A stretch of 63,616 nucleotides of DNA, the filler included. It is 6 parts of 6 records of this genome, joined end to end, with 100 filler letters (N's around TTAATTAATTAA, not from the genome) between each part and the next. Parts side by side here need not be neighbours in the genome. Positions count along the whole stretch, not along the records: positions 30,924 to 48,738 come from DRR723986_5065; 5 more parts are not named here. One strand, 5' to 3'. Of the stretch, positions 4,272 to 55,279 are shown in pieces (within the stretch, counting starts at the first letter, position 1; each line of letters begins with the position of its first letter). A model generated the notes under the pieces. That model saw only the letters and a program-made list of their open reading frames with translations, was not told the origin of the DNA and ran no database searches. A program made the translations under genes and the position numbers.

Positions 4272-4425
4272 AAGGGCCCCCTGTTGTTGCTGAATATCCC
4301 GGCAGGTGCCTAGCTGGTTTGGCGCGCCGGGGAAAGGGGGCGACCGCCCAAACCAGTGGCATTGCAGCGGATTGAAACCCGGTGCTTAATGCGCGGACAA
4401 AGAAACGAAGCGGGAGGGCCATACT

Positions 4426-5301
4426 ATGCCAATCAATCAGGATGCCGTTGGATCGAAAGGAACGCCGCGAACATGGGCGTGGGATTCTCGAGATGCCTTG
4501 CTCTATGCACTGGGTGTCGGCGCCGGGGTGGCAGACCCTGTTGGGGCTGAGCTGGAATTCACCACCGAGAACACGATGGGCGTGGACCAGAAAGTGCTCC
4601 CCACTTTCGGCGTGCTTGCAGGTTTCAATGCCAGAGGCGGGAAAAGCGCCATGGCAGATGCCGGAACCTACGATCCCCGCATGCTGGTTCACGGAGAACA
4701 GGGCATCCGCCTGCACCGCCCCATTCCGGTCGAAGGTGAAATCACGCTCGTCGATGAAATCACCGGCATTTACGACAAAGGCAAGGGCGCCGTCGTCGCG
4801 ACGAAAGCCGAGGCGACGCTGACAGCCGATGGCAAGCCGCTCTTCGAACTGACCTCATCCGTCTTCATTGTAGGTGAAGGTGGTTTCGGCGGCGAAAAGG
4901 GCCCATCCGGCCAGATGAACGTTGCGCCAGAGCGTGCCCCGGATCACGAAGTGACCTACCAGACCCGTCCGGACCAGGCTCTGCTCTACCGCCTCAGCGG
5001 CGACCGCAATCCCTTGCATTCAGACAAGAAATTCTCTGACGTCGGCGGCTTCCCGAAGCCGATCCTGCATGGCCTCTGCACCTATGGTTTCACCGGCCGG
5101 GCCTTGCTGGCCTCGCTGTGCGGGAATGAACCGGGCAGGTTCAAGGCCATGGATGGGCGCTTCTCTTCGCCCGTGCTGCCTGGCGAGACACTGACCATTA
5201 AAATCTGGACTGGCGAAGGCGATAACGGCACGGCCATCTTCCAGACCGTCGGTGGAGACGGCCGTGTCGTCATCAACAATGGAGGCTTTACCTACGCCTG
5301 A
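4426..5301 (+). CDS. double hot-dog MaoC-family (R)-specific enoyl-CoA hydratase/dehydratase
   Basis: LYALGVG, LVHGEQ and hydratase-2 motif YRLSGDRNPLH...PILHGLCTYG. Confidence 0.88.
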   Translation: MPINQDAVGSKGTPRTWAWDSRDALLYALGVGAGVADPVGAELEFTTENTMGVDQKVLPTFGVLAGFNARGGKSAMADAGTYDPRMLVHGEQGIRLHRPIPVEGEITLVDEITGIYDKGKGAVVATKAEATLTADGKPLFELTSSVFIVGEGGFGGEKGPSGQMNVAPERAPDHEVTYQTRPDQALLYRLSGDRNPLHSDKKFSDVGGFPKPILHGLCTYGFTGRALLASLCGNEPGRFKAMDGRFSSPVLPGETLTIKIWTGEGDNGTAIFQTVGGDGRVVINNGGFTYA

Positions 5302-5310
5302 TGGCGACGG

Positions 5311-6525
5311 CTATTCCGCCGCCGCAGCCGCAGGCTTGATCTCTTTTACGCCGCGTTTCTCCAGGAATTTCCGGATGTTGCGGGCGGCTTGGCGGATGCG
5401 CTGTTCGTTCTCGACGAGAGCGATGCGGACATGGCCGTCGCCATGCTCGCCGAAACCGGCACCGGGCGCGACAGCGACATGGGCCTCATTGATCAGCTGC
5501 AAGGCAAACTCAAGACTGCCAAGGTGCTTCAGCTGCTCCGGAATCGGCGCCCAAGCGAACATGGAGGCGGTCGGGCTCGGAACCGGCCAACCGGCGCGGG
5601 TGAAGCTTTCCACCAGCACATCGCGGCGTGATTTGTAGATGGCGCGCGTCTCGTCGACGCAGTCCTGCGGGCCGTCGAGCGCGGCCACAGCGGCCACCTG
5701 GATCGGCGTGTAGGCGCCGTAATCGAGATAAGATTTCACGCGGGCCAGCGCAGAAATCAGCGCCTCGTTCCCGGCGACGAAGCCCATGCGCCAGCCGGCC
5801 ATGGAATAGGTCTTCGACATGGTCGTGAATTCGACCGCAATATCCTTTGCGCCATCGACCTGGAGGATCGAGGGTGTCGGTTCGTCAAAATAAATTTCAT
5901 TGTAAGCCAGGTCCGACAGGACCCACAGCTCGTGCTTCTTCGCGAACTTGATGGCGTCCTTATAGAAATCGAGATCGCACACAGCGGCCGTCGGGTTGGA
6001 CGGATAGCAAAGAACCATGGCTGTCGGCGGCGGCACGGAATAGTGCACAGCTTTACCAAGGTTCGACAGGTACTGCTCCGGCGTCTGGGCGGGCACACCG
6101 CGGATCGACGCGCCGGCAATGATGAAGCCGAAATGGTGCAGCGGGTAAGACGGATCCGGTGCAAGGATCACATCGCCCGGCGCCGAAATGGCCTGTGCGA
6201 GGTTCGCAAAGCCTTCCTTGGAGCCGAGAGTGACGATCACTTCCCGGTCTTTGTCCAGTTTTACGTCGAAGCGGCGCTTGTAATAGTCCGTCAGCGCGCG
6301 TCGCAGGCCCGGAATGCCGCGCGACGCGGAATAGCCGTTAACGTCCGGCCGGCGCGCCGTTTCGCACAGCTTGTCAACGATGTGTTTCGGGGTCGGCAGG
6401 TCCGGGTTGCCCATACCGAGGTCAATGATATCCGCGCCGTCCGCACGCAGGGCCGCCTTGGTGCGGTTCACCTGTTCGAAAACGTAAGGGGGAAGTCGGC
6501 GGATTTTGTGAAAATCGGTATTCAT
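5311..6525 (-). CDS. PLP-dependent class I aminotransferase (AlaC/AatC-like; often annotated LL-diaminopimelate aminotransferase)
   Basis: RLPPYVF, DLGMGNPD, GSKEG, YPSNPT, SKTYSMAGWRMG (PLP lysine). Confidence 0.9.
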   Translation of the reverse strand: MNTDFHKIRRLPPYVFEQVNRTKAALRADGADIIDLGMGNPDLPTPKHIVDKLCETARRPDVNGYSASRGIPGLRRALTDYYKRRFDVKLDKDREVIVTLGSKEGFANLAQAISAPGDVILAPDPSYPLHHFGFIIAGASIRGVPAQTPEQYLSNLGKAVHYSVPPPTAMVLCYPSNPTAAVCDLDFYKDAIKFAKKHELWVLSDLAYNEIYFDEPTPSILQVDGAKDIAVEFTTMSKTYSMAGWRMGFVAGNEALISALARVKSYLDYGAYTPIQVAAVAALDGPQDCVDETRAIYKSRRDVLVESFTRAGWPVPSPTASMFAWAPIPEQLKHLGSLEFALQLINEAHVAVAPGAGFGEHGDGHVRIALVENEQRIRQAARNIRKFLEKRGVKEIKPAAAAAE

Positions 6526-9910: not shown

Positions 9911-10010
9911 NNNNNNNNNNNNNNNNNNNNNNNNNNNNNNNNNNNNNNNNNNNNTTAATTAATTAANNNNNNNNNNNNNNNNNNNNNNNNNNNNNNNNNN
10001 NNNNNNNNNN
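9911..10010. other. artificial contig spacer 1 (N-run with TTAATTAATTAA linker)
   Basis: 100 nt; linker at 9955-9966 gives stops in all six frames. Confidence 0.99.
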
Positions 10011-23507: not shown

Positions 23508-23607
23508 NNNNNNNNNNNNNNNNNNNNNNNNNNNNNNNNNNNNNNNNNNNNTTAATTAATTAANNNNNNNNNNNNNNNNNNNNNNNNNNNNNNNNNNNNN
23601 NNNNNNN
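23508..23607. other. artificial contig spacer 2
   Basis: 100-nt N-run with TTAATTAATTAA at 23552-23563. Confidence 0.99.
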
Positions 23608-30823: not shown

Positions 30824-30923
30824 NNNNNNNNNNNNNNNNNNNNNNNNNNNNNNNNNNNNNNNNNNNNTTAATTAATTAANNNNNNNNNNNNNNNNNNNNN
30901 NNNNNNNNNNNNNNNNNNNNNNN
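30824..30923. other. artificial contig spacer 3
   Basis: 100-nt N-run with TTAATTAATTAA at 30868-30879. Confidence 0.99.
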
Positions 30924-40840: not shown

Positions 40841-41000
40841 AACAGGTTAGCAATAGCGGCTGCATCAACAAGCCTCAGAATCCAGTTCGGATTCCTTGTG
40901 CTGGCTCGGATAACTATGAGCGTTGGGTTCTAAATCCTTAGCGAGAAATTTCGTGCCCCACCACCAGACGGGAGAACGATCGGTACCAAGATTGCATCCA

Positions 41001-41039
41001 GTGGTGGATGGTCCACCGATGGTGGTGAAAAAGCCACCG
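41001..41039. promoter_or_regulatory. tandem candidate enhancer (UAS) sites
   Basis: GTGGTG-N6-CCACCG twice (41001-41018, 41022-41039), 21-bp period, each containing palindromic GGTG-N7-CACC. Confidence 0.6.
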
Positions 41040-41138
41040 TCGGTTCGAAGTAGCCTTGATCGAACGAAACTCAGCAATTCTATTCGCGCTAAATCTAAAG
41101 TGTCGAACCGTCTGCCAAATAAGTGTGATTCGCCTGAG

Positions 41139-42593
41139 ATGTCGTTGCAATACTCGCGTTTCGCTTCGCTAAGATGGAAGCTCCTTCTGCCAATCCTTGC
41201 GTCGGCCATCGTCATTGCGACGCTGGTTGCAGTGTTTTCGTTTCTTGTCGGCCGACATCGTGCGCTGTCAGAACTTGATCAGCGGCGGGCTGCGGTTGAA
41301 CGGACAATATTGTCAGCAAGTTTTCCGCTGACCGCTCCAGTTGCGAAAGCCATTGCAACACTGGCAGATGTCGAACTGGTTGTTCTGAACGCCGATTATG
41401 AACTGGATTCGTCGACGCTTCCGGTGGATCCGACTTCAACCCGGCTTTTCGGGGCGGTCAAGAATGCTGACGGCACCACTAGCGCTTCCGGTATCCAGGC
41501 CGCCGGTGAAACGGTCATCGACGGAGAAGAGTATCTGGTCTGGCTGTTGGATCGGAAGTCCCTGCCCTCAGATCAAAACAGCGGGCAGCATGTTGTACTG
41601 CTTTTCGAAAAGTCCGCTGTAACCGATGCAAGTCTGCGTGCTGCGACTTGGCCGCTCATCACAGGGCTAACGATTACGGCCTTGTTGAGCACGGTGGTCC
41701 TGTTGAGTACATCGCGTTTGGCGAGACGGATTCGTGACCTGCAGCAATGCGTACGAAAGGTTGCGCTTGGCAATTTCGATGAAGGTGTGAAGGATCTCTC
41801 GCCCGACGAATTGGGCCGCCTTGGACAAGATGTCAATGCAATGGGCGGCCAGTTGCAGAGTCTCTGGGCAACGGTCCAGCGCGAGGAGAGTACTCGTTTG
41901 CTTCACCAATTGTCAGCCGGCATGGCTCATCAGCTTCGCAATACGCTCACTGGTGCAAGACTTGCTCTTGAGCTCTATGTAAGCGAATTGACTGGTGGTC
42001 AAAAAACGGGTGCGGCGACATCGATGCAGCCCGAAGAGCTGGTTGTCGTTGACCGAGAGCTGACTCGTGCGGAAGAATTTGTGCGGCGTTTGCTGATGGT
42101 CGGTGCTGGGGAGCAGAGGATCGAAGATCGCCCGGCGTGCATTGCTGATTGTTTGAGTGACCTCAAGTCCAGCCACGACATCGTGGCGGACCACTTGTCG
42201 GTTGAAATGACGTGGAGCTTGCCGGCGAATTCCGCGTTCTATCAAGTGGCCGATGGAGGAACACTGGTGGCTGCCATTTCGAATCTGATCCTCAACGCAA
42301 TCGATGCTGGGACGAACGTTCGGGTTCAAGGCAGTCTGCAGGATGCAACGCTCACGATCGACGTCTCCGATGACGGGCCTGGGATATTGGATGAAGTCAA
42401 AGAGAATCTCTTTCAACCGCTTGTCACATCTAAGCCAGAAGGACTGGGGCTGGGGCTGGCCCTCGTGCAGCGCGCTGCAGAAAAACTCCATGGCGGAGTA
42501 TCATGGAATCGCAGGGAAGGAATAACCACGTTTTCCATTAATTTCCCCGTTCAACCTCTCAAAAGTGACAGTGATGGCGCGAGCAACATCTAA
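41139..42593 (+). CDS. HAMP-containing sensor histidine kinase
   Basis: Two TMs, HAMP (DELGRLG..VNAM), H-box AHQLRNTL, NLILNA, DDGPG, GLGLGL. Confidence 0.93.
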   Translation: MSLQYSRFASLRWKLLLPILASAIVIATLVAVFSFLVGRHRALSELDQRRAAVERTILSASFPLTAPVAKAIATLADVELVVLNADYELDSSTLPVDPTSTRLFGAVKNADGTTSASGIQAAGETVIDGEEYLVWLLDRKSLPSDQNSGQHVVLLFEKSAVTDASLRAATWPLITGLTITALLSTVVLLSTSRLARRIRDLQQCVRKVALGNFDEGVKDLSPDELGRLGQDVNAMGGQLQSLWATVQREESTRLLHQLSAGMAHQLRNTLTGARLALELYVSELTGGQKTGAATSMQPEELVVVDRELTRAEEFVRRLLMVGAGEQRIEDRPACIADCLSDLKSSHDIVADHLSVEMTWSLPANSAFYQVADGGTLVAAISNLILNAIDAGTNVRVQGSLQDATLTIDVSDDGPGILDEVKENLFQPLVTSKPEGLGLGLALVQRAAEKLHGGVSWNRREGITTFSINFPVQPLKSDSDGASNI

Positions 42594-42645
42594 GAGCTAT
42601 AACGTGTCGAAGAATCGAGATGTGCATGTCAGCCAAGGAAGCGTG

Positions 42646-44073
42646 ATGGCAAGTGTGTTAGTTGTTGATGACGAACCGGCAATTTGTTGGGCCATCCGGC
42701 GGGCGCTCGAGAAAATGGGCTACTCCGTTGCCACCGCATCGTCCGCAGAGGAGGGGCTGGAAATTGCGCGAACCGATGTGCCAGCACTGGTGTTTCTTGA
42801 TGTCCGCTTGCCAAAGGAAGACGGCCTAACCTCCCTTCCGAAGTTCTTGGATACCACACAGGGTGCGCCGGTCGTAATCATGACCGCCTTTGGTGATCTC
42901 GCCACTGCAGTTCTTGCCGTTGAACGCGGGGCAGCAGATTACGTTACGAAGCCGTTTAAGTTGGAGGACATTGAGGCGGCCTGTAAAGCTCACCTTAGCC
43001 GCCGCGCTGATCCAGAACCCACCGATCAGCAGCGCCAGCGATCGGCTAAAAATGAAGACGATGGGCCTGACGCTGTTAGCAGGAAGCAGGAGCTTGTTGG
43101 GTGTTCCGCGGCAATGCAAAGCGTCTTCCGGCAGATCGCATTTTTTGCCAAGAGTGAATTGTCAGTACTGATCACTGGCGAGACAGGCACCGGGAAGGAG
43201 CTCGTCGCCGCTGCCATCCATCGCCATAGCAGTCGTTGTGATCAGCCGTATCTAGCGGTTGCTCCGGTAGCGATGAACCCAGACTTGATCGAGAGTGAGC
43301 TTTTCGGGCATGTACGCGGCGCTTTTACAGGAGCTGAGTCGGATCGCGTGGGATTGTTCGAAGCTGCCGAGGGAGGAACGATTCTGCTAGATGAGATCGG
43401 CGACTTGCCACCTGCTTTGCAAGCAAAGCTATTGCGCGTACTTGAAGCTGGAGAGTATTGCCGAGTTGGTGAGGTCGCACCGCGGAATTGTGATGTCCGA
43501 GTACTCGCTGCAACCAGTTGCGATCTGCAGGGGGCGATCGCTGACGGGCGGTTCAGAGAAGATCTGTTTTATCGAATCAACGGAATGCACATCCACTTGC
43601 CGCCGTTGCGACATCGCCCCGATGATTTCCGACCTCTATGCGAGTATTTCTTAGGCGAAGTGGATGCCAATCAAGGTGGCAAGATCGATGAGCAATTGCT
43701 AGCGGAACTGGCGAAGCGACACTGGCCGGGGAACATCCGAGAACTTCGAAACGCTGTTCGCCATGCCGCCGTGCTGGCGAGGGGGCGTGCCATGCAGGTG
43801 CAAGATTTTCCCGTCGCAGCAACCCTTGGAGACCATCAAGACGCAGGAGAGGATGCTGCGGTCGAGCAGTTTGTGTGGCAGTGGGCAAAGCGGTATGCAG
43901 ATGAGAGCCAGGATGGCGGTGATCTGCTCGGCGCGTTTATGGCGGCGACCGAACCGGCTCTGATGAAATTTGCAATTGAATCTTGTGGTGGCAATCGTGC
44001 TCGTGCCGCCGAGTTGCTTGGAATCCACCGCGGTACACTGCGCGATCGATTGCGCAGCTATGGCATTGAATGA
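42646..44073 (+). CDS. sigma54-dependent (NtrC-family) response regulator
   Basis: Receiver VVDDE/LDVRLP, GETGTGKE, GAFTGA, DEIGD, FREDLFYR, WPGNIREL, C-terminal Fis HTH. Confidence 0.95.
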   Translation: MASVLVVDDEPAICWAIRRALEKMGYSVATASSAEEGLEIARTDVPALVFLDVRLPKEDGLTSLPKFLDTTQGAPVVIMTAFGDLATAVLAVERGAADYVTKPFKLEDIEAACKAHLSRRADPEPTDQQRQRSAKNEDDGPDAVSRKQELVGCSAAMQSVFRQIAFFAKSELSVLITGETGTGKELVAAAIHRHSSRCDQPYLAVAPVAMNPDLIESELFGHVRGAFTGAESDRVGLFEAAEGGTILLDEIGDLPPALQAKLLRVLEAGEYCRVGEVAPRNCDVRVLAATSCDLQGAIADGRFREDLFYRINGMHIHLPPLRHRPDDFRPLCEYFLGEVDANQGGKIDEQLLAELAKRHWPGNIRELRNAVRHAAVLARGRAMQVQDFPVAATLGDHQDAGEDAAVEQFVWQWAKRYADESQDGGDLLGAFMAATEPALMKFAIESCGGNRARAAELLGIHRGTLRDRLRSYGIE

Positions 44074-44383
44074 CGTCGCGAGTTACTTAAGGGCACAAAA
44101 AGAGCATAAGTGTAGTACACTGTCGCAGAGTGCTCGGTGAGATCATTTTCCGAGCTTCGCAATCGAAGGCGGTCCTGCGGAGCGTGTTGCGGAAGCGGGC
44201 GCTTCTCGCCGTTCACACCACCGGGGCGAAGCTCTTAGGCCCGAGAATCGGTGTTGGTGAAAAATATTTTGCAAGAATTTTGACGCCGTTTCATCGCCTG
44301 AAAAATAGCGCTATGGCGGCTCGAAATACTACGTTGCAATGACTTGAAAAATCCAAGTTGCGGTTCAGCGAAAAGTAGCAACT

Positions 44384-44417
44384 TGTTACAATCGTGAACC
44401 GCATTGCAAGCTTTACA
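44384..44417 (+). promoter_or_regulatory. candidate extended -10 promoter and conserved downstream box, module copy 1
   Basis: TGTTACAAT...CGCATTGCAAGCTTTACAC, matched by 46547-46580. Confidence 0.45.
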
Positions 44418-44571
44418 CTGCAGTCCATCTACGCCCATGGGTTGCTGATTGAACGGGTTGAATACCGCTTGGGCGAACCGCATCGTTGGGTGGTGGCCAG
44501 CCCCACCTCCGGCTGATTGCGTGCTTCTGTGCAACACGGTGTAGGTTGAGGGTGCTCTCCATTACCTCGGT

Positions 44572-44613
44572 GCGCACCCAGCGCACGCTGAGCGCACGCC
44601 GTCTCCAGCGCAT
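44572..44613 (+). repeat. short direct repeats GCGCA(C/T) upstream of ORF A1
   Basis: GCGCAC at 44572, 44581, 44592 and GCGCAT at 44608. Confidence 0.55.
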
Positions 44614-44675
44614 CGCCCGGAGCGGAATTGACGTTTCAAAATGCAGTCCAGGAATTTCACCAGGAACGGCAAACG

Positions 44676-45338
44676 ATGTCTGACAAAAGTATCCGAATCG
44701 ACAACCCCGCGCACGCTCGGTCCAGCGATGTTGCTTACCCTGCTACTCCTGATGCTCGCAATTATGCCCGTTTGTCGTACAAGAACAAACGCTATCATCT
44801 AGGCAAGTACGACTCTCCGGAGAGCTATGCGACCTATGCCATCTGGAGGGCAACGATTGACCGTACGGGGGAGGCGCCAGAGCTAGCAACGATACGTAGC
44901 CATGTGCAAGCATTTCTCGCTAACGAGCCAGCTAAACAACCCGTTTACACTCGAAAGTGGTTTGCCGGATCGCTCATCGTTTCCGCCTTTCTAGTTGCTT
45001 TTAGTATCGTTTCGGCGTCTCAAATAATCTCAAGTCGAAGTCACGCCAAAGTCGATGGCATCGCAATGTCTGAAAATGAGATTCTGCAGGTCCGCAACAC
45101 GCGTGCTTACTTTGACAAGCAAGCCGCGAGACGCGCATCGCCAGAATCAGTAGCTACAAGAGCTTTGTTGCTCAAGAAGTTGGAGCTTGAAGGCAGTGCG
45201 AGTTTACCAATACCCGAGATTCCCGAAGACATCCGTCACTTTGCTAAGCCGGCATTTCCTGATCTTCCCAGCCGGGATGTTAGTCGGAATGCTTCTGGTG
45301 GCTACGCAGGGGAAGGCGGAAGCGACGCGATCAATTGA
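44676..45338 (+). CDS. ORF A1: hypothetical membrane protein with integrase-arm-like N-terminus
   Basis: 220 aa from ATG 44676; YARLSYKNKRYHLGKYDSPESY; TM after KWFAG; about 49% identical to 46826-47476 by manual alignment. Confidence 0.85.
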   Translation: MSDKSIRIDNPAHARSSDVAYPATPDARNYARLSYKNKRYHLGKYDSPESYATYAIWRATIDRTGEAPELATIRSHVQAFLANEPAKQPVYTRKWFAGSLIVSAFLVAFSIVSASQIISSRSHAKVDGIAMSENEILQVRNTRAYFDKQAARRASPESVATRALLLKKLELEGSASLPIPEIPEDIRHFAKPAFPDLPSRDVSRNASGGYAGEGGSDAIN

Positions 45339-45618
45339 ACCTTCTCCGGCATCAATTGAGCATGCTGTGTCACTGATTGCACCGGAGTTAATCGCGCCGG
45401 ATATGCTAGCACCGACAGACGATCCATGTGCAGCCGAGAGACTGGCTTATGCAAATGCCTACGCTGATTATCTCGACGCACTTCAAGCGGCCCATGCGGC
45501 GTTGTTGGCACTTGAAGTATGCGAATTTGTTGCCAATCCAGAAGAGCCTGAAGACGAAGAAGCCGCTTCTGCGCGGCTAGAGCAATTGGCTTCGATGAAG
45601 TCCGTGCTTGTAAGATAG
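45241..45618 (+). CDS. ORF B1: small exported helical protein with C-x30-C
   Basis: Paralog of 47364-47720; hydrophobic signal-like segment ending AEA; start uncertain (TTG 45241 is conserved in both copies). Confidence 0.75.
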   Translation: MLSRHFLIFPAGMLVGMLLVATQGKAEATRSIEPSPASIEHAVSLIAPELIAPDMLAPTDDPCAAERLAYANAYADYLDALQAAHAALLALEVCEFVANPEEPEDEEAASARLEQLASMKSVLVR

Positions 45619-45633
45619 TACTTTGGTGCAACA

Positions 45634-45695
45634 GCGTGGGCAGCCGTAAACAGCTATGGGGCTAATCATGGTGTGCGGCTGCCCACGCCTTCTTT
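45634..45695 (+). terminator. conserved long hairpin after ORF B1
   Basis: GCGTGGGCAGCCG (45634-45646) pairs with CGGCTGCCCACGC (45676-45688); inner stem; followed by CTTCTTT. Confidence 0.6.
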
Positions 45696-46546
45696 GTTGC
45701 CTGAATTGTGCTCAGTCCTGGGACTCCCTCTCATTCGGCGACGCACACCCGCCTACTTTACTAATCTTTCATCGTGCCGGTCCGACTTCATGCGACATGC
45801 ATGGGTGCTGATGCCGTTACTCTTGCTGGCATCAGGTGCGGCGACCGGCATCAGTGCGTGCTTCTCGGACACGTAACAGCGCCCCGTGGTTATCCATCGA
45901 TCGAGGATTCCTGCACGCATACGCTAGTGAGCGAACTCGCTGGGGTGCGGTAGCATTGGAGCATCAGGATCCCACTGTTAGGCCCGAAGCAGTCATTCGA
46001 GTACTTGGCGTCGAGTGAGCTCTGCCTGATGCCCCCTGCACTGAGGAGTAAACCTCGTTGTGGTTGAGCCTGCGTTGGTTCGTTTGGATTGACAGACTCG
46101 TCGCCCTCACGTCGAGACCCGGGCATGAAGCTGGAGGCCCAGGGAGTGGAGCTGTCGAGCGACCCGCACGGGGCATCTGTGCCGCATCGAGAGTGGATTC
46201 GGCCTTGGTGAGTCATCCAGGATCCGGTTTCGTCGTCAGCGCAGCCGCTAGATGCCAGACCGCCCAGAGGAGATGCCTGAAATCTGAGTCGGTTTAGCCA
46301 GGCGATTTGACTCTGCAGTCACACATCGCCGTTGGCAATTACGGCACGTGGAACCTCATCTATGGGGTGCTCCTACCCCCTCAGTTCGGAGAGAAGCACG
46401 CCAGGCAATGGACTGACGCTCAAAAAAAATCTGATCAATTTTGGCTGACTAAGAGCAGCTGGTTGGCACCGCTGAGGTGCCCAAAATCTGAGTCGCCATC
46501 TAGACCGATCAAATTGCGCACGGTCCTCCAAAGGCTAATTGCTAGC

Positions 46547-46580
46547 TGCTACAATGATCGTCGCTTTGCAAGCATAACAC
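46547..46580 (+). promoter_or_regulatory. candidate extended -10 promoter and conserved downstream box, module copy 2
   Basis: TGCTACAAT...CGCTTTGCAAGCATAACAC; similar distance to ATG as in copy 1. Confidence 0.45.
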
Positions 46581-46709
46581 CGAAGTTCACCACGGCACGT
46601 TCGCAAGTCGCGGGCATCAGCGGTTTGTCGTCGCTGCCACGCAGGTTGCTGGGGCAGTTCGTGAGTTTCATCGCTTGAAAATGCGCGAACCTGCACAGCG
46701 CCCGCGTAT

Positions 46710-46746
46710 TCGCCAGCTTTCGCCACCCATTCGCCAGGTGTCGCCA
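46710..46746 (+). repeat. four helically phased TCGCCA direct repeats upstream of ORF A2
   Basis: TCGCCA at 46710, 46720, 46731, 46741 (spacing 10, 11, 10). Confidence 0.7.
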
Positions 46747-46825
46747 GCAGGCTCGCGGACCAAACAAAACTAAGGCGCAGGACGTTGTTCCGGCTGGGCA
46801 ATGAACCACTGAGGCTTCACCACTG

Positions 46826-47476
46826 ATGGATAATGCTAACATTCGCGTTGACTCCCCCTCTGCACGCCTGTCCTATCCGAGTGAGCGAGACAAGAAGGGG
46901 TATGCTCGTCTCTCCTTGAAAAGCAAACGCTATCATTTCGGACGATACGGTACACCGGAGAGCTATGCGACCTTCGCCCTATGGAGTGCCGAACTGGCTA
47001 GGACGGGGGAGGCACCGGAGATTGCTAGTATTAAGCCACACGTCCGGGATTTCTTGTCTGGGCAGCCTTCCGGACAGCCGGCTTATACTAAGAAATGGTT
47101 CGCTGGAGGGCTCGTCTCGGCGGCTCTTGTTCTCGGATTGTGCGCAATTTTCGCAGGCTACTTAGCCTCAAGAATCAAGCCGCCCCAAGTCGATGGCATC
47201 GCAATGTCCCAAACTGAGATTTTGCGAATTCGCAATACACGCTTGGTCGACGCACAGAGAGATGCACGCCGTGCTTCCTTTGATGCAATCGCGACGAAAG
47301 CAGTGTTGCTCGAAAAATTGGAGCGCGAAGGCAGTGCCAGTTTACCGTTACCAAAGTTGCCAGATGACGTCCGTCGCCTTGCTAAGCCGCCGCTTCCTGA
47401 TGTTTCCAGCCGGAGTGGTCCTGGGGGCCTTCCTAGCGTTGACGATCCAGCAGGCGGCAGCTCGCAGCGTGAGTGA
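46826..47476 (+). CDS. ORF A2: paralog of ORF A1
   Basis: YARLSLKSKRYHFGRYGTPESY, RTGEAPE, KWFAG-TM, VDGIAMS..EIL..RNTR, ARRAS, EGSASLP shared with A1. Confidence 0.87.
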   Translation: MDNANIRVDSPSARLSYPSERDKKGYARLSLKSKRYHFGRYGTPESYATFALWSAELARTGEAPEIASIKPHVRDFLSGQPSGQPAYTKKWFAGGLVSAALVLGLCAIFAGYLASRIKPPQVDGIAMSQTEILRIRNTRLVDAQRDARRASFDAIATKAVLLEKLEREGSASLPLPKLPDDVRRLAKPPLPDVSSRSGPGGLPSVDDPAGGSSQRE

Positions 47477-47720
47477 GCCCGCGGTGGAGCTCGTTTCGCC
47501 CGAGTTGCTGACTCCGACGGAAGATCCCTGCGAAAGCGAACGGGAAGCTTACGCGAATGCATACAGTGACTATCTACTTGCCGTCCAAGCGGCTCAGGCT
47601 GCATTGGCAGTGCTTGAGAGCTGCGAGTTAGTCCACGATCCAGAAGAGCCCGAGGAGCCATTAGCCGCTAGGGCAAGAATCGACGATCTCGCTTCGATGC
47701 ACTCTGTGCTTCAGAGATAG
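47364..47720 (+). CDS. ORF B2: paralog of ORF B1
   Basis: MTSVALLSRRFLMFPAGVVLGAFLAL...AAA signal-like N-terminus; DPC..ER.AYANAY.DYL.A.QAA.AAL..LE.CE; LASM.SVL.R end. Confidence 0.8.
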   Translation: MTSVALLSRRFLMFPAGVVLGAFLALTIQQAAARSVSEPAVELVSPELLTPTEDPCESEREAYANAYSDYLLAVQAAQAALAVLESCELVHDPEEPEEPLAARARIDDLASMHSVLQR

Positions 47721-47735
47721 CATTACGATGCAACA

Positions 47736-47797
47736 GCGTGGGCAGCCGAGCATAGCTATGGGGCAATTCATGGTGTGCGACTGCCCACGCCTTTTCT
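47736..47797 (+). terminator. conserved long hairpin after ORF B2
   Basis: GCGTGGGCAG...CTGCCCACGC outer stem, GCATA/TGTGC, CTATGGG-GCAA-TTCATGG, followed by CTTTTCT. Confidence 0.6.
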
Positions 47798-48639
47798 ACT
47801 CGACGTAAAGAAGCTCGGGTTCGGCTGTAACATCCACCAAACACGCCCGAGTCGATGGACGCTACCATCGATGCCGAACCCGAGCCACCCTTTCTTTCGG
47901 CACAACAAGTGAAGGCACTTGATCGAACTTCCCTGTCGCTACGTTAGGTGCAGCCAAGTGTGTGGCTTGATCGCTTGGTTGCGTTTGGTAAAGCCCTTGT
48001 CCCACGTTGCTTATGCTTGCCTAACGTCATCTGGCGTCTGCCTGAACATCTGGGCAATCCCAATGCAGAATTTTCTGGCAGCACACAACGGCTTGCATGC
48101 GTTTATGGTTAGCGTGGGGGTGTCAAGACTTGGTCACGAGGGGACACTGGTGGCCGCTTCTCGAGAAACTTAATTCTTTCATGGCGAGGGTGTTTGGATT
48201 TCAGCCGGTCGGTTGGAGTTGTGAGCAGCTCATTTCTGGACGCGAGTTCGAATTGCGGGCGTTAGTACACGGGGGCTACGGGTAAAACTATGTGATCTTT
48301 GCGAGGCAGGATCCTTGCAACCTCAGAACCTGAAACCCAGCATCTTTGCTGCGTTCAGATGTCGTGCCAACGATACGGCTCTGAGGAGTCGATTCACTCG
48401 CTTAACCGTCACGGCTCGCGGCGCAAGCGGTTTGTGGGCTGAAGCTTGCTTTACCGCCTAGTAACCATTTTCCGGGGTTCTCTGGATGGCAATGAGGTTT
48501 ACTTGTGCGGTCGTTGCACTTCCTCAACCAGCCCCCCGATTTAGCTGGGGCTCTTTGTTGCTGTTTATCCGTTGGGAGAGTATACTTCGCCAAACCCCTC
48601 AAGTGTCTGCCTTTCGCCCCCCTTCTTAGGCTGTCTCTG

Positions 48640-48738
48640 ATGCTTTTTCGCCTTGTACTAGGTTGCTTCCTGTCTTTAACGTCAGTCTCGCAATGCTCTG
48701 CTGACTTGATATTAACGCTAACGGATGCCGGAGCTGGC
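48640..48738 (+). CDS. 5' fragment of an exported protein (PEP-CTERM-like N-terminus)
   Basis: MLFRLVLGCFLSLTSVSQCSA-DLILTLTDAGAG, signal peptide; truncated by gap. Confidence 0.5.
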
Positions 48739-48838
48739 NNNNNNNNNNNNNNNNNNNNNNNNNNNNNNNNNNNNNNNNNNNNTTAATTAATTAANNNNNN
48801 NNNNNNNNNNNNNNNNNNNNNNNNNNNNNNNNNNNNNN
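48739..48838. other. artificial contig spacer 4
   Basis: 100-nt N-run with TTAATTAATTAA at 48783-48794. Confidence 0.99.
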
Positions 48839-55179: not shown

Positions 55180-55279
55180 NNNNNNNNNNNNNNNNNNNNN
55201 NNNNNNNNNNNNNNNNNNNNNNNTTAATTAATTAANNNNNNNNNNNNNNNNNNNNNNNNNNNNNNNNNNNNNNNNNNNN
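55180..55279. other. artificial contig spacer 5
   Basis: 100-nt N-run with TTAATTAATTAA at 55224-55235. Confidence 0.99.

Follow-up and report, generated by a model that had tools for sequence, protein, structure and literature searches.

The whole stretch of DNA analysed here, a window of 63,616 nucleotides (nt), carries two copies of a two-gene cassette, both within the contig at 30924-48738. The genes are referred to below as A and B, and the copies as A1, B1, A2 and B2; all their features lie on the plus strand. The initial annotation had described positions 44676-47476 as one open reading frame (ORF), "ORF A", in which an integrase-arm-like domain is fused to a transmembrane helix. This range instead begins with the start codon of A1, ends with the last codon of A2, and so takes in two tandem paralogues. 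A1 (P0001; 44676-45338) encodes a predicted single-pass membrane protein of 220 amino acids (aa), and its ATG at 44676 agrees with the start positions of A2 and of an orthologue on contig L001. A2 (P0002; 46826-47476) encodes a predicted protein of the same kind with 216 aa. The 3′ end of each A gene is overlapped by B, the gene of a small protein predicted to be exported, which was absent from the initial annotation and is conserved. B1 (P0003; 45187-45618) has an uncertain start codon and overlaps A1 by at most 152 nt; B2 (47364-47720) has a homology-supported ATG at 47364 and overlaps A2 by 113 nt, the longest frame (P0004) beginning at 47193. Each copy is followed by a terminator-like hairpin with a T-rich tail, at 45634-45699 after B1 (inverted repeat 45634-45651/45671-45688; site 45670-45689) and at 47772-47801 after B2 (site 47772-47791), and the two stems are identical.

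Three parts can be distinguished in the A proteins. An N-terminal head, likely of the arm-type/AP2-like class, is encoded at 44727-44930 in A1 (residues 18-85) and aligns to residues 14-81 of A2 (46865-47068). A hydrophobic, putatively transmembrane segment follows at 44973-45029 in A1 (residues 100-118; Kyte-Doolittle 19-mer mean 2.24) and at 47111-47167 in A2 (residues 96-114; mean 2.28), where it lies within a predicted helix at residues 86-115. Beyond it, a conserved block is encoded at 45045-45212 in A1, together with further helices, and at 47183-47350 in A2 (residues 120-175); in a 74-member alignment of the family it reads VDG..[LM][ST]..E...[IV]RG.R. The motifs on which the initial annotation was founded are borne out by the translations of both genes: the N-terminal YP-x3-D-x3-YARLS-x-K-x-KRYH-x-G-x-Y-x-[ST]PESYAT-x-A-x-W is present exactly in A1 and A2, and RTGEAPE, KWFAG, VDGIAMS..EIL..RNTR, ARRAS and KLE.EGSASLP are found in both.

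A1 and A2 share 51% identity (BLASTP, E 4e-77), and B1 and B2 share 54%. At the DNA level, 44763-45691 aligns to 46901-47793 with 65% identity, the flanks are unalignable, and the hairpin after B1 marks the end of the duplicated DNA. The ratio of nonsynonymous to synonymous change (dN/dS, Nei-Gojobori) is 0.12 for A1/A2 outside the B overlap and 0.15-0.20 for B1/B2. The synonymous difference of A is 0.74 outside the stretch shared with B and only 0.48 within it, a decrease that translation of both frames should produce. The A and B genes are real and under purifying selection. In an unrooted tree of the N-domains, that of A1 groups with the L001 orthologue and not with A2, and the A1/A2 duplication therefore predates the split of the two organisms. 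The region consists of two old tandem copies of a conserved two-gene A-B module.

The A and B protein families

None of the four proteins has a Pfam or NCBIfam match at E<=10 or a PADLOC match, and PHROGs returned one chance-level row only. A word-index search found a single relative, on the 1661-bp contig L001 of an uncultured Pirellulaceae metagenome-assembled genome. A HMMER profile built from A1, A2 and one relative was then scanned against 1.84 billion representative proteins, with 93 proteins matched at E<=1e-3, 59 of those at E<=1e-10. The matches are mostly 118-269 aa long, the alignment usually spans the head, the hydrophobic segment and the next block, and the hits that were read or aligned share a common layout, in which a basic N-domain is followed by one hydrophobic helix and this by a conserved block next to the membrane. 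One protein, P0078 (924 aa), was rejected as a false positive, being a repeat protein that matches the 'Y..L...GEAPE' helix only. In seven stretches similar to 'YDALIARYGEAPELTLRE' it aligns with the second half of the profile of the A head; judged by eye, it is probably composed of repeats like the tetratricopeptide repeat (TPR) and a metallo-hydrolase-like C-terminal part.

Across the 74-member alignment, Y17, P18 and S46 are invariant, and G25, G39, W53, G61, D123, E131, R136 and R139 are each conserved in at least 90% of the proteins. Ten clusters were looked up; all were singletons, with no name beyond 'hypothetical protein'. The whole-family profile gave chance matches to membrane helices only among PDB sequences. 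No longer fused form was found at E<=0.01 among proteins of 413-2000 aa, a search by word index with the 74-member profile that is weak evidence. Matches reaching well past the N-domain occur in 4 of 201 Pirellulaceae genomes (G001, G092 and, with two copies each, G017 and G138). In 400 other genomes of the phylum, with 8 candidates per genome scored, none was found at E<=1e-10. Two loci on metagenome contigs, L068 and L069, were found with a 12-member sub-alignment. At L069:555-1087 the A gene lies in two overlapping frames (555-848 and 698-1087), through a frameshift or a sequencing error. In a search of sequencing runs no RNA run was listed, and each of the 7 DNA runs contained under half of the sequence words sampled.

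The hydrophobic stretch of about 20 residues reported for A is present, with Kyte-Doolittle means of 2.2-2.3 in A1 and A2. In the family, a single segment of at least 1.6 is found in 71 of the 74 members and a second one in 0/74. In A1 the 15 residues on the N-terminal side of the segment have a net charge of +3 and the 15 on its C-terminal side one of 0; over the same distances, 59 of the 74 members contain more K+R on the N-terminal side. From hydrophobicity and charge bias, A is predicted to be a single-pass protein with its N-terminus inside and its C-terminus outside. The block right after the helix is conserved at V122 (58/74), D123 (70/74), G124 (54/74), E131 (68/74), R136 (67/74) and R139 (72/74). 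The last 20-40 residues of A, the part under the B overlap, are poorly conserved.

All ten A genes for which downstream sequence is available (two in the window and one each in L001, L033, L034, L035, L036, L037, L068 and L069) are overlapped at their 3′ end by a B-like ORF, over about 32-179 nt depending on which start codon is taken. Eight aligned B proteins have a hydrophobic, signal-like N-terminus ending in small residues (AAA, AEA, ATA), from which B is predicted to be an exported protein. A twin-arginine-like start is seen in B2 and L001 (SRRFL) and in L035 (VRRFI), and in none of the other aligned B proteins. In B2, the SRRFL signal is followed by a hydrophobic stretch that ends ...QQAAA before RS, then by C-x30-C and the C-terminus ...HSVLQR. 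The eight proteins have exactly two invariant cysteines, 30 residues apart within an Ala-rich stretch, and share the invariant residues E59, A62, A66, A73 and A80. With a net charge of -7 to -12, the core is acidic, and B is probably an acidic, Ala-rich helical hairpin clamped by a C-x30-C disulfide. All eight end in S-[VI]-L-x-R, and the two metagenome loci end in SVLEP and SILEQ; this S-[VI]-L C-terminus lies at 45598-45615 in B1 and at 47700-47717 in B2, and recurs in L001, L033-L037, L068 and L069. Such conservation at the very end of the protein suggests that this end is recognised by a sorting factor or by a protease of the PDZ or tail-specific type. A search with a B profile gave only 5 relatives, and no relation of B to any PDB chain or Pfam family was detectable.

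The A head and integrase N-termini

Run over the 201 Pirellulaceae genomes, the full A-family profile matched at 78 places, spread over 57 genomes. Six of these matches span most of A, 2 cover other parts, and 70 are limited to profile positions 13-95 (mostly 22-65). These N-domain-only matches sit, in 37 of the 70 cases, in open frames of 394-491 aa. Twelve such frames were scanned, and PF00589 (Phage_integrase) scored above its curated cut-off in 10 of them; no Pfam family covers the N-terminal motif of the 12. The integrase frames read '...P.YR.H..SGQARV.I.GKD.YLG.Y.SPES...Y..L..E...', and the integrase motif given in the initial annotation (GQA.V.L.G.D.YLG..GS..S) is literally found in Pirellulaceae integrase frames.

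An hhalign comparison of the A family with 22 integrase N-termini gave a probability of 98.3% (E 1.6e-14, 44 columns), a figure that is partly circular because the integrase set was gathered with the same A profile, and two independent checks were therefore made. A hidden Markov model (HMM) of the head built from A-family rows only matched one of 30 PF00589 frames (L063, 422 aa) with E 2.6e-7; genomes G017 and G138 together have 34 PF00589 matches, of which these 30 were used. Since only one frame in 30 carries it, the N-domain marks one integrase clade and not planctomycete integrases at large, and A shares it. The window was also searched by tblastn with 12 queries, comprising 11 full integrase frames and a C-terminal fragment. 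The A1 and A2 heads alone were matched, with a best E of 2.8e-5 for residues 52-79 of integrase L021 against 44754-44837 (54% identity over 28 residues). That the A head is homologous to the N-termini found in one clade of tyrosine recombinases from Pirellulaceae is well supported, as is the companion claim of the initial annotation that A lacks a recombinase core, the catalytic domain with the residues R-K-H-R-H/W-Y: A ends at 216-220 aa, PF00589 has no match in A1 or A2 at E<=10, and the same 12 queries found no remnant of a recombinase catalytic domain in the window at E<0.01. A tblastn match in the 1.1-kb spacer (45768-45974, minus strand, E 0.44) was rejected as an integrase remnant, its translation being unrecognisable.

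Two unusual members of this assemblage were observed. At L037:5697-6722 (plus strand) in genome G092, an A-type protein with a long N-terminal extension forms a 341-aa frame; its head looks the most integrase-like (PPYPEKPHKTGQARV...YLG), yet the membrane helix and the B partner are kept, and its branch in the unrooted tree lies next to the point where A proteins and integrases part. At L028:1294-1533 (plus strand), a 413-aa frame has two successive 'P.YRLH...' head motifs, which would amount to a tandem duplication of the arm-like domain, and it has no PF00589 match at E<=0.01.

The arm-binding hallmarks listed by Smyshlyaev et al. (10.1101/542381) include an aromatic residue in the middle strand, a basic last strand, a Gly before the helix and a small residue or Ala in the helix; the same source places arm-binding domains and the AP2 domain in one Pfam clan, CL0081. 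In the A proteins, the last residue of the first long strand (position 31) is aromatic in 61/74, position R28 is basic in 70/74 and position 34, in the last strand, in 65/74. G39, between the last strand and the helix, is present in 73/74, and helix position 51 is G or A, mostly Gly, in 61/74. A head profile built from 8 A proteins and 22 integrases matched both AP2 repeats of WRI1 (7wq5) among PDB sequences with E 0.013, the alignment covering the '...YLG.Y.S.E...Y' core. Pfam AP2 was the sole family to match more than 2 of 30 head sequences, although its matches (3/30, best E 0.044) are below cut-off, as is its match to 1 of the 74 full-length A members (E 0.12). An HNH-endonuclease model of PHROG matched residues 51-74 of one integrase weakly (E 0.05).

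AlphaFold2 modelling of A2 with the 74-member alignment gave a mean predicted local distance difference test score (pLDDT) of 83.6, and the 10-residue-block means within the head (residues 11-80) are 86-98. The model has strands at 26-31 and 34-40 and helices at 44-60, 66-78, 86-115 (a long one), 129-150 and 152-168, and a model of the head alone has the same elements and a one-residue bridge at residue 21. Of the beta-beta-beta-alpha pattern that had been proposed for the head, the models show the hairpin and the helix, with this one-residue bridge in place of the first strand, and no clean sheet of three strands. In a Foldseek search with the head no row reached E<=1e-3; the arm-type structures 3jtz and 3rmp came at ranks 4 and 5 with E about 2.5, and the E-values for solved arm-binding or AP2 domains were 2.4-4.6. 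A wide structural search had no arm domain in its top 50, and the best match in a second structural look was 3ju0. The head likely belongs to the arm/AP2 fold class.

Genomic surroundings and upstream DNA

The window is a pseudo-molecule in which six pieces are joined by linkers of the form N44-TTAATTAATTAA-N44 (9911-10010, 23508-23607, 30824-30923, 48739-48838 and 55180-55279). The GC content varies among the pieces (about 48-66%), and genes on either side of a linker are not true neighbours. Upstream of the cassettes, the window encodes NUDIX, 4HFCP_synth, an HlyD/AcrB efflux pair of the resistance-nodulation-division (RND) type, DUF1559, a HAMP histidine kinase and a sigma-54-dependent response regulator; the last two, whose reading frames overlap, lie directly upstream of A1 (40923-44073). 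A 4HFCP_synth gene is also found upstream of A-B in L034 and L036, and this common neighbour points to a chromosomal, vertically inherited position for the window paralogue. In L035 (genome G017), A-B lies about 750 nt from a PF00589 integrase with a different N-terminal type (4356-5561, minus strand). Within L035:4034-5561, a stretch beside A-B was read by eye as a read-through feature resembling a transfer RNA (tRNA); this arrangement suggests the border of a genomic island. In L001, a C-terminal fragment judged by eye to be tyrosine-recombinase-like converges on B.

No tRNA was found in the window, and Rfam has no match in 44000-48738. In the unusually long stretches around the cassettes at 44074-44675, 45690-46825 and 47792-48738 (0.6-1.1 kb), neither a convincing ORF nor an RNA family, a tRNA or a promoter-like site was found. 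A 17-nt palindromic element, GTTTCATCGC[C/T]TGAAAA (17-mer GTTTCATCGCYTGAAAA), is near-identical upstream of A1 and A2 and forms an island of identity in otherwise unalignable upstream DNA. Its first copy, GTTTCATCGCCTGAAAA, lies at 44288-44304, 388 nt upstream of A1, and the second, GTTTCATCGCTTGAAAA, at 46665-46681, 161 nt upstream of A2. The element could be an operator, a speculative assignment, or a remnant of the duplication. For the sigma-54 promoter pattern, 47 matches were obtained where chance would give 40.8; the nearest, at 46635, was rejected because it is without the GG.

Possible functions and comparison with known systems

The A-B pair may tentatively be read as a ToxR/ToxS-like system, in which A would be a bitopic DNA-binding regulator built on an integrase arm-type domain and B its periplasmic co-factor. 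A would sit in the inner membrane and begin with a cytoplasmic, basic head of some 65 residues, which a short linker would connect to a single transmembrane helix; a helical outer tail of about 60-100 residues would follow, opening with the block P-x-VDG-x-x-[LM]-[ST]-x-x-E-x-x-x-[IV]-R-G-x-R. The head would bind specific DNA sites while at the membrane. B would be translated from the frame overlapping the A 3′ end and exported by its signal peptide and, like ToxS, TcpH and VtrC, would bind or stabilise the outer tail of A, setting the activity of A or its proteolytic turnover. TcpH and VtrC are the partners of TcpP and VtrA. A more far-reaching proposal is that A-B represents an undescribed class of transmembrane one-component regulators, with an arm-type/AP2-like head, recruited from mobile-element integrases or shared with them, and periplasmic control by a translationally coupled, disulfide-clamped acidic partner; this must be called rather doubtful. 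In that view, the S-V-L at the C-terminus of B may mark it for a protease of the PDZ or tail-specific type, and regulated proteolysis could then set the head free.

Several points weigh against a membrane-bound DNA-binding regulator. To our knowledge, the known bitopic regulators carry OmpR-type winged helices and not an arm-type fold. No curated arm-binding or AP2 model (AP2, Arm-DNA-bind_1-5, Integrase_AP2) reaches its cut-off, the head-only model has a mean pLDDT of just 67.5, DSSP assigns it two strands and a single bridge and not three strands, and the hhalign comparison has the circularity mentioned above. Arm-type domains bind DNA as monomers with modest affinity, so that regulation would need oligomerisation. 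As regards DNA sites, the core TTTCA-N5-TGAAA of the 17-mer is absent from 37 other loci examined, no sigma-70-type promoter was found in 44000-48738, and no convincing -24/-12 (sigma-54) promoter precedes A1 or A2.

The head could bind protein instead of DNA. A and B would then be an envelope signalling or structural pair, in which the head sequesters a sigma factor or transcription factor at the membrane or anchors a cytoplasmic complex, an explanation that we regard as unlikely. RseA/RseB consists of a single-pass anti-sigma factor with its N-terminus inside and a periplasmic partner, and a protein of this topology with a co-translated exported partner fits such pairs as well; nevertheless, A and B have no match to an anti-sigma domain or to zf-HC2 at E<=10, and the genes upstream are a histidine kinase and a sigma-54 activator, with no gene for a sigma factor of the extracytoplasmic function (ECF) group beside either cassette of the window. 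The most conserved residues of the head include the aromatics Y17, F50 and W53, which could form a protein interface, and its structural matches to DNA-binding domains are weak. On the other side stand its homology to integrase N-termini and its net positive charge in 68 of the 74 members.

It is quite improbable, in our estimate, that A-B serves the biology of mobile elements, with the tethered head competing with integrases for their arm sites or mimicking arm-site binding. It could thereby control integration or excision, keep out incoming elements or hold element DNA at the membrane. The nearest relatives of the head are integrases from the same bacterial family, and two loci have recombinase sequences at hand, namely the PF00589 integrase about 750 nt from the L035 cassette, which also adjoins the tRNA-like stretch, and the fragment converging on B in L001. 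The contig at 30924-48738, by contrast, is without an integrase catalytic domain or tRNA, and the window, L034 and L036 share the same chromosomal neighbourhood downstream of 4HFCP_synth. Moreover, the N-domain occurs in only 1 of 30 PF00589 frames of two apparently complete carrier genomes, and no PADLOC or PHROG match was obtained. That the ORFs are decayed integrase leftovers or chance frames without function, as the lack of any annotation or family name and the roughly 600-1100 bp of apparently non-coding DNA around the cassettes might suggest, is effectively refuted by selection and conservation: dN/dS is 0.12-0.2 in both genes, the 93 representatives, but for the one repeat protein, have one architecture wherever read or aligned, the partner gene is kept in 10 of 10 cases, and the AlphaFold model is confident.

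If the DNA-binding regulator proposed above is real, the novelty would lie in its DNA-binding fold, which differs from that of other bitopic one-component regulators with a partner, a claim to be taken as tentatively as the proposal itself. In integrases, arm-binding domains serve as accessory modules for DNA binding; the related AP2 domains are known from eukaryotic transcription factors and from homing endonucleases. If A binds DNA, the few bitopic transcription regulators would gain a DNA-binding fold new to them, and bacteria would provide a case of an integrase domain that became a host signalling protein or arose from one. It would also give a testable role to an unnamed gene pair of the planctomycetes, a phylum in which little is known of regulation or of the biology of the envelope. 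A limited full-text search of the literature found no title or abstract describing an arm/AP2-type domain fused to a membrane helix or a planctomycete bitopic regulator. The A-B family is small and nameless in every library searched, and even a basic biochemical result would therefore be new.

Among known systems, the arm-binding domains of integrases (lambda Int, P4-like/HPI/HAI7, Tn916) resemble the A head, in which a hairpin leads through a conserved Gly into a helix, the last strand is basic and the strand before it has an aromatic residue. The A head differs from them in that its first strand is only a bridge in the models and that it has an extra helix at 66-78. Where an integrase continues with core-binding and catalytic domains, A continues with a transmembrane helix and an extracytoplasmic tail, both predicted. 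RseA/RseB shares with A-B the single-pass protein with its N-terminus inside and the adjacent exported partner, both features being predicted for A-B; A-B differs in having no anti-sigma domain, no adjacent sigma factor gene and a head related to a DNA-binding domain.

A parallel in overall design is found in the bitopic transcription regulators of Vibrio, of which ToxR/ToxS and VtrA are examples (PMC7496328, PMC5693285). ToxR/ToxS, TcpP/TcpH and VtrA/VtrC have in common with A-B a cytoplasmic N-terminal head of a nucleic-acid-binding type, one membrane helix and a periplasmic tail, predicted in the case of A, and the next gene downstream codes for a small partner that is exported, again by prediction in the case of B. 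In sequence, no part of A-B is similar to these systems. ToxR-type heads are winged helix-turn-helix domains of the OmpR/PhoB type, whereas the A head is arm/AP2-like, with a predicted hairpin followed by two helices. Likewise, B differs from the ToxS-type partners in being, by prediction, an acidic helical hairpin with the C-x30-C pair.

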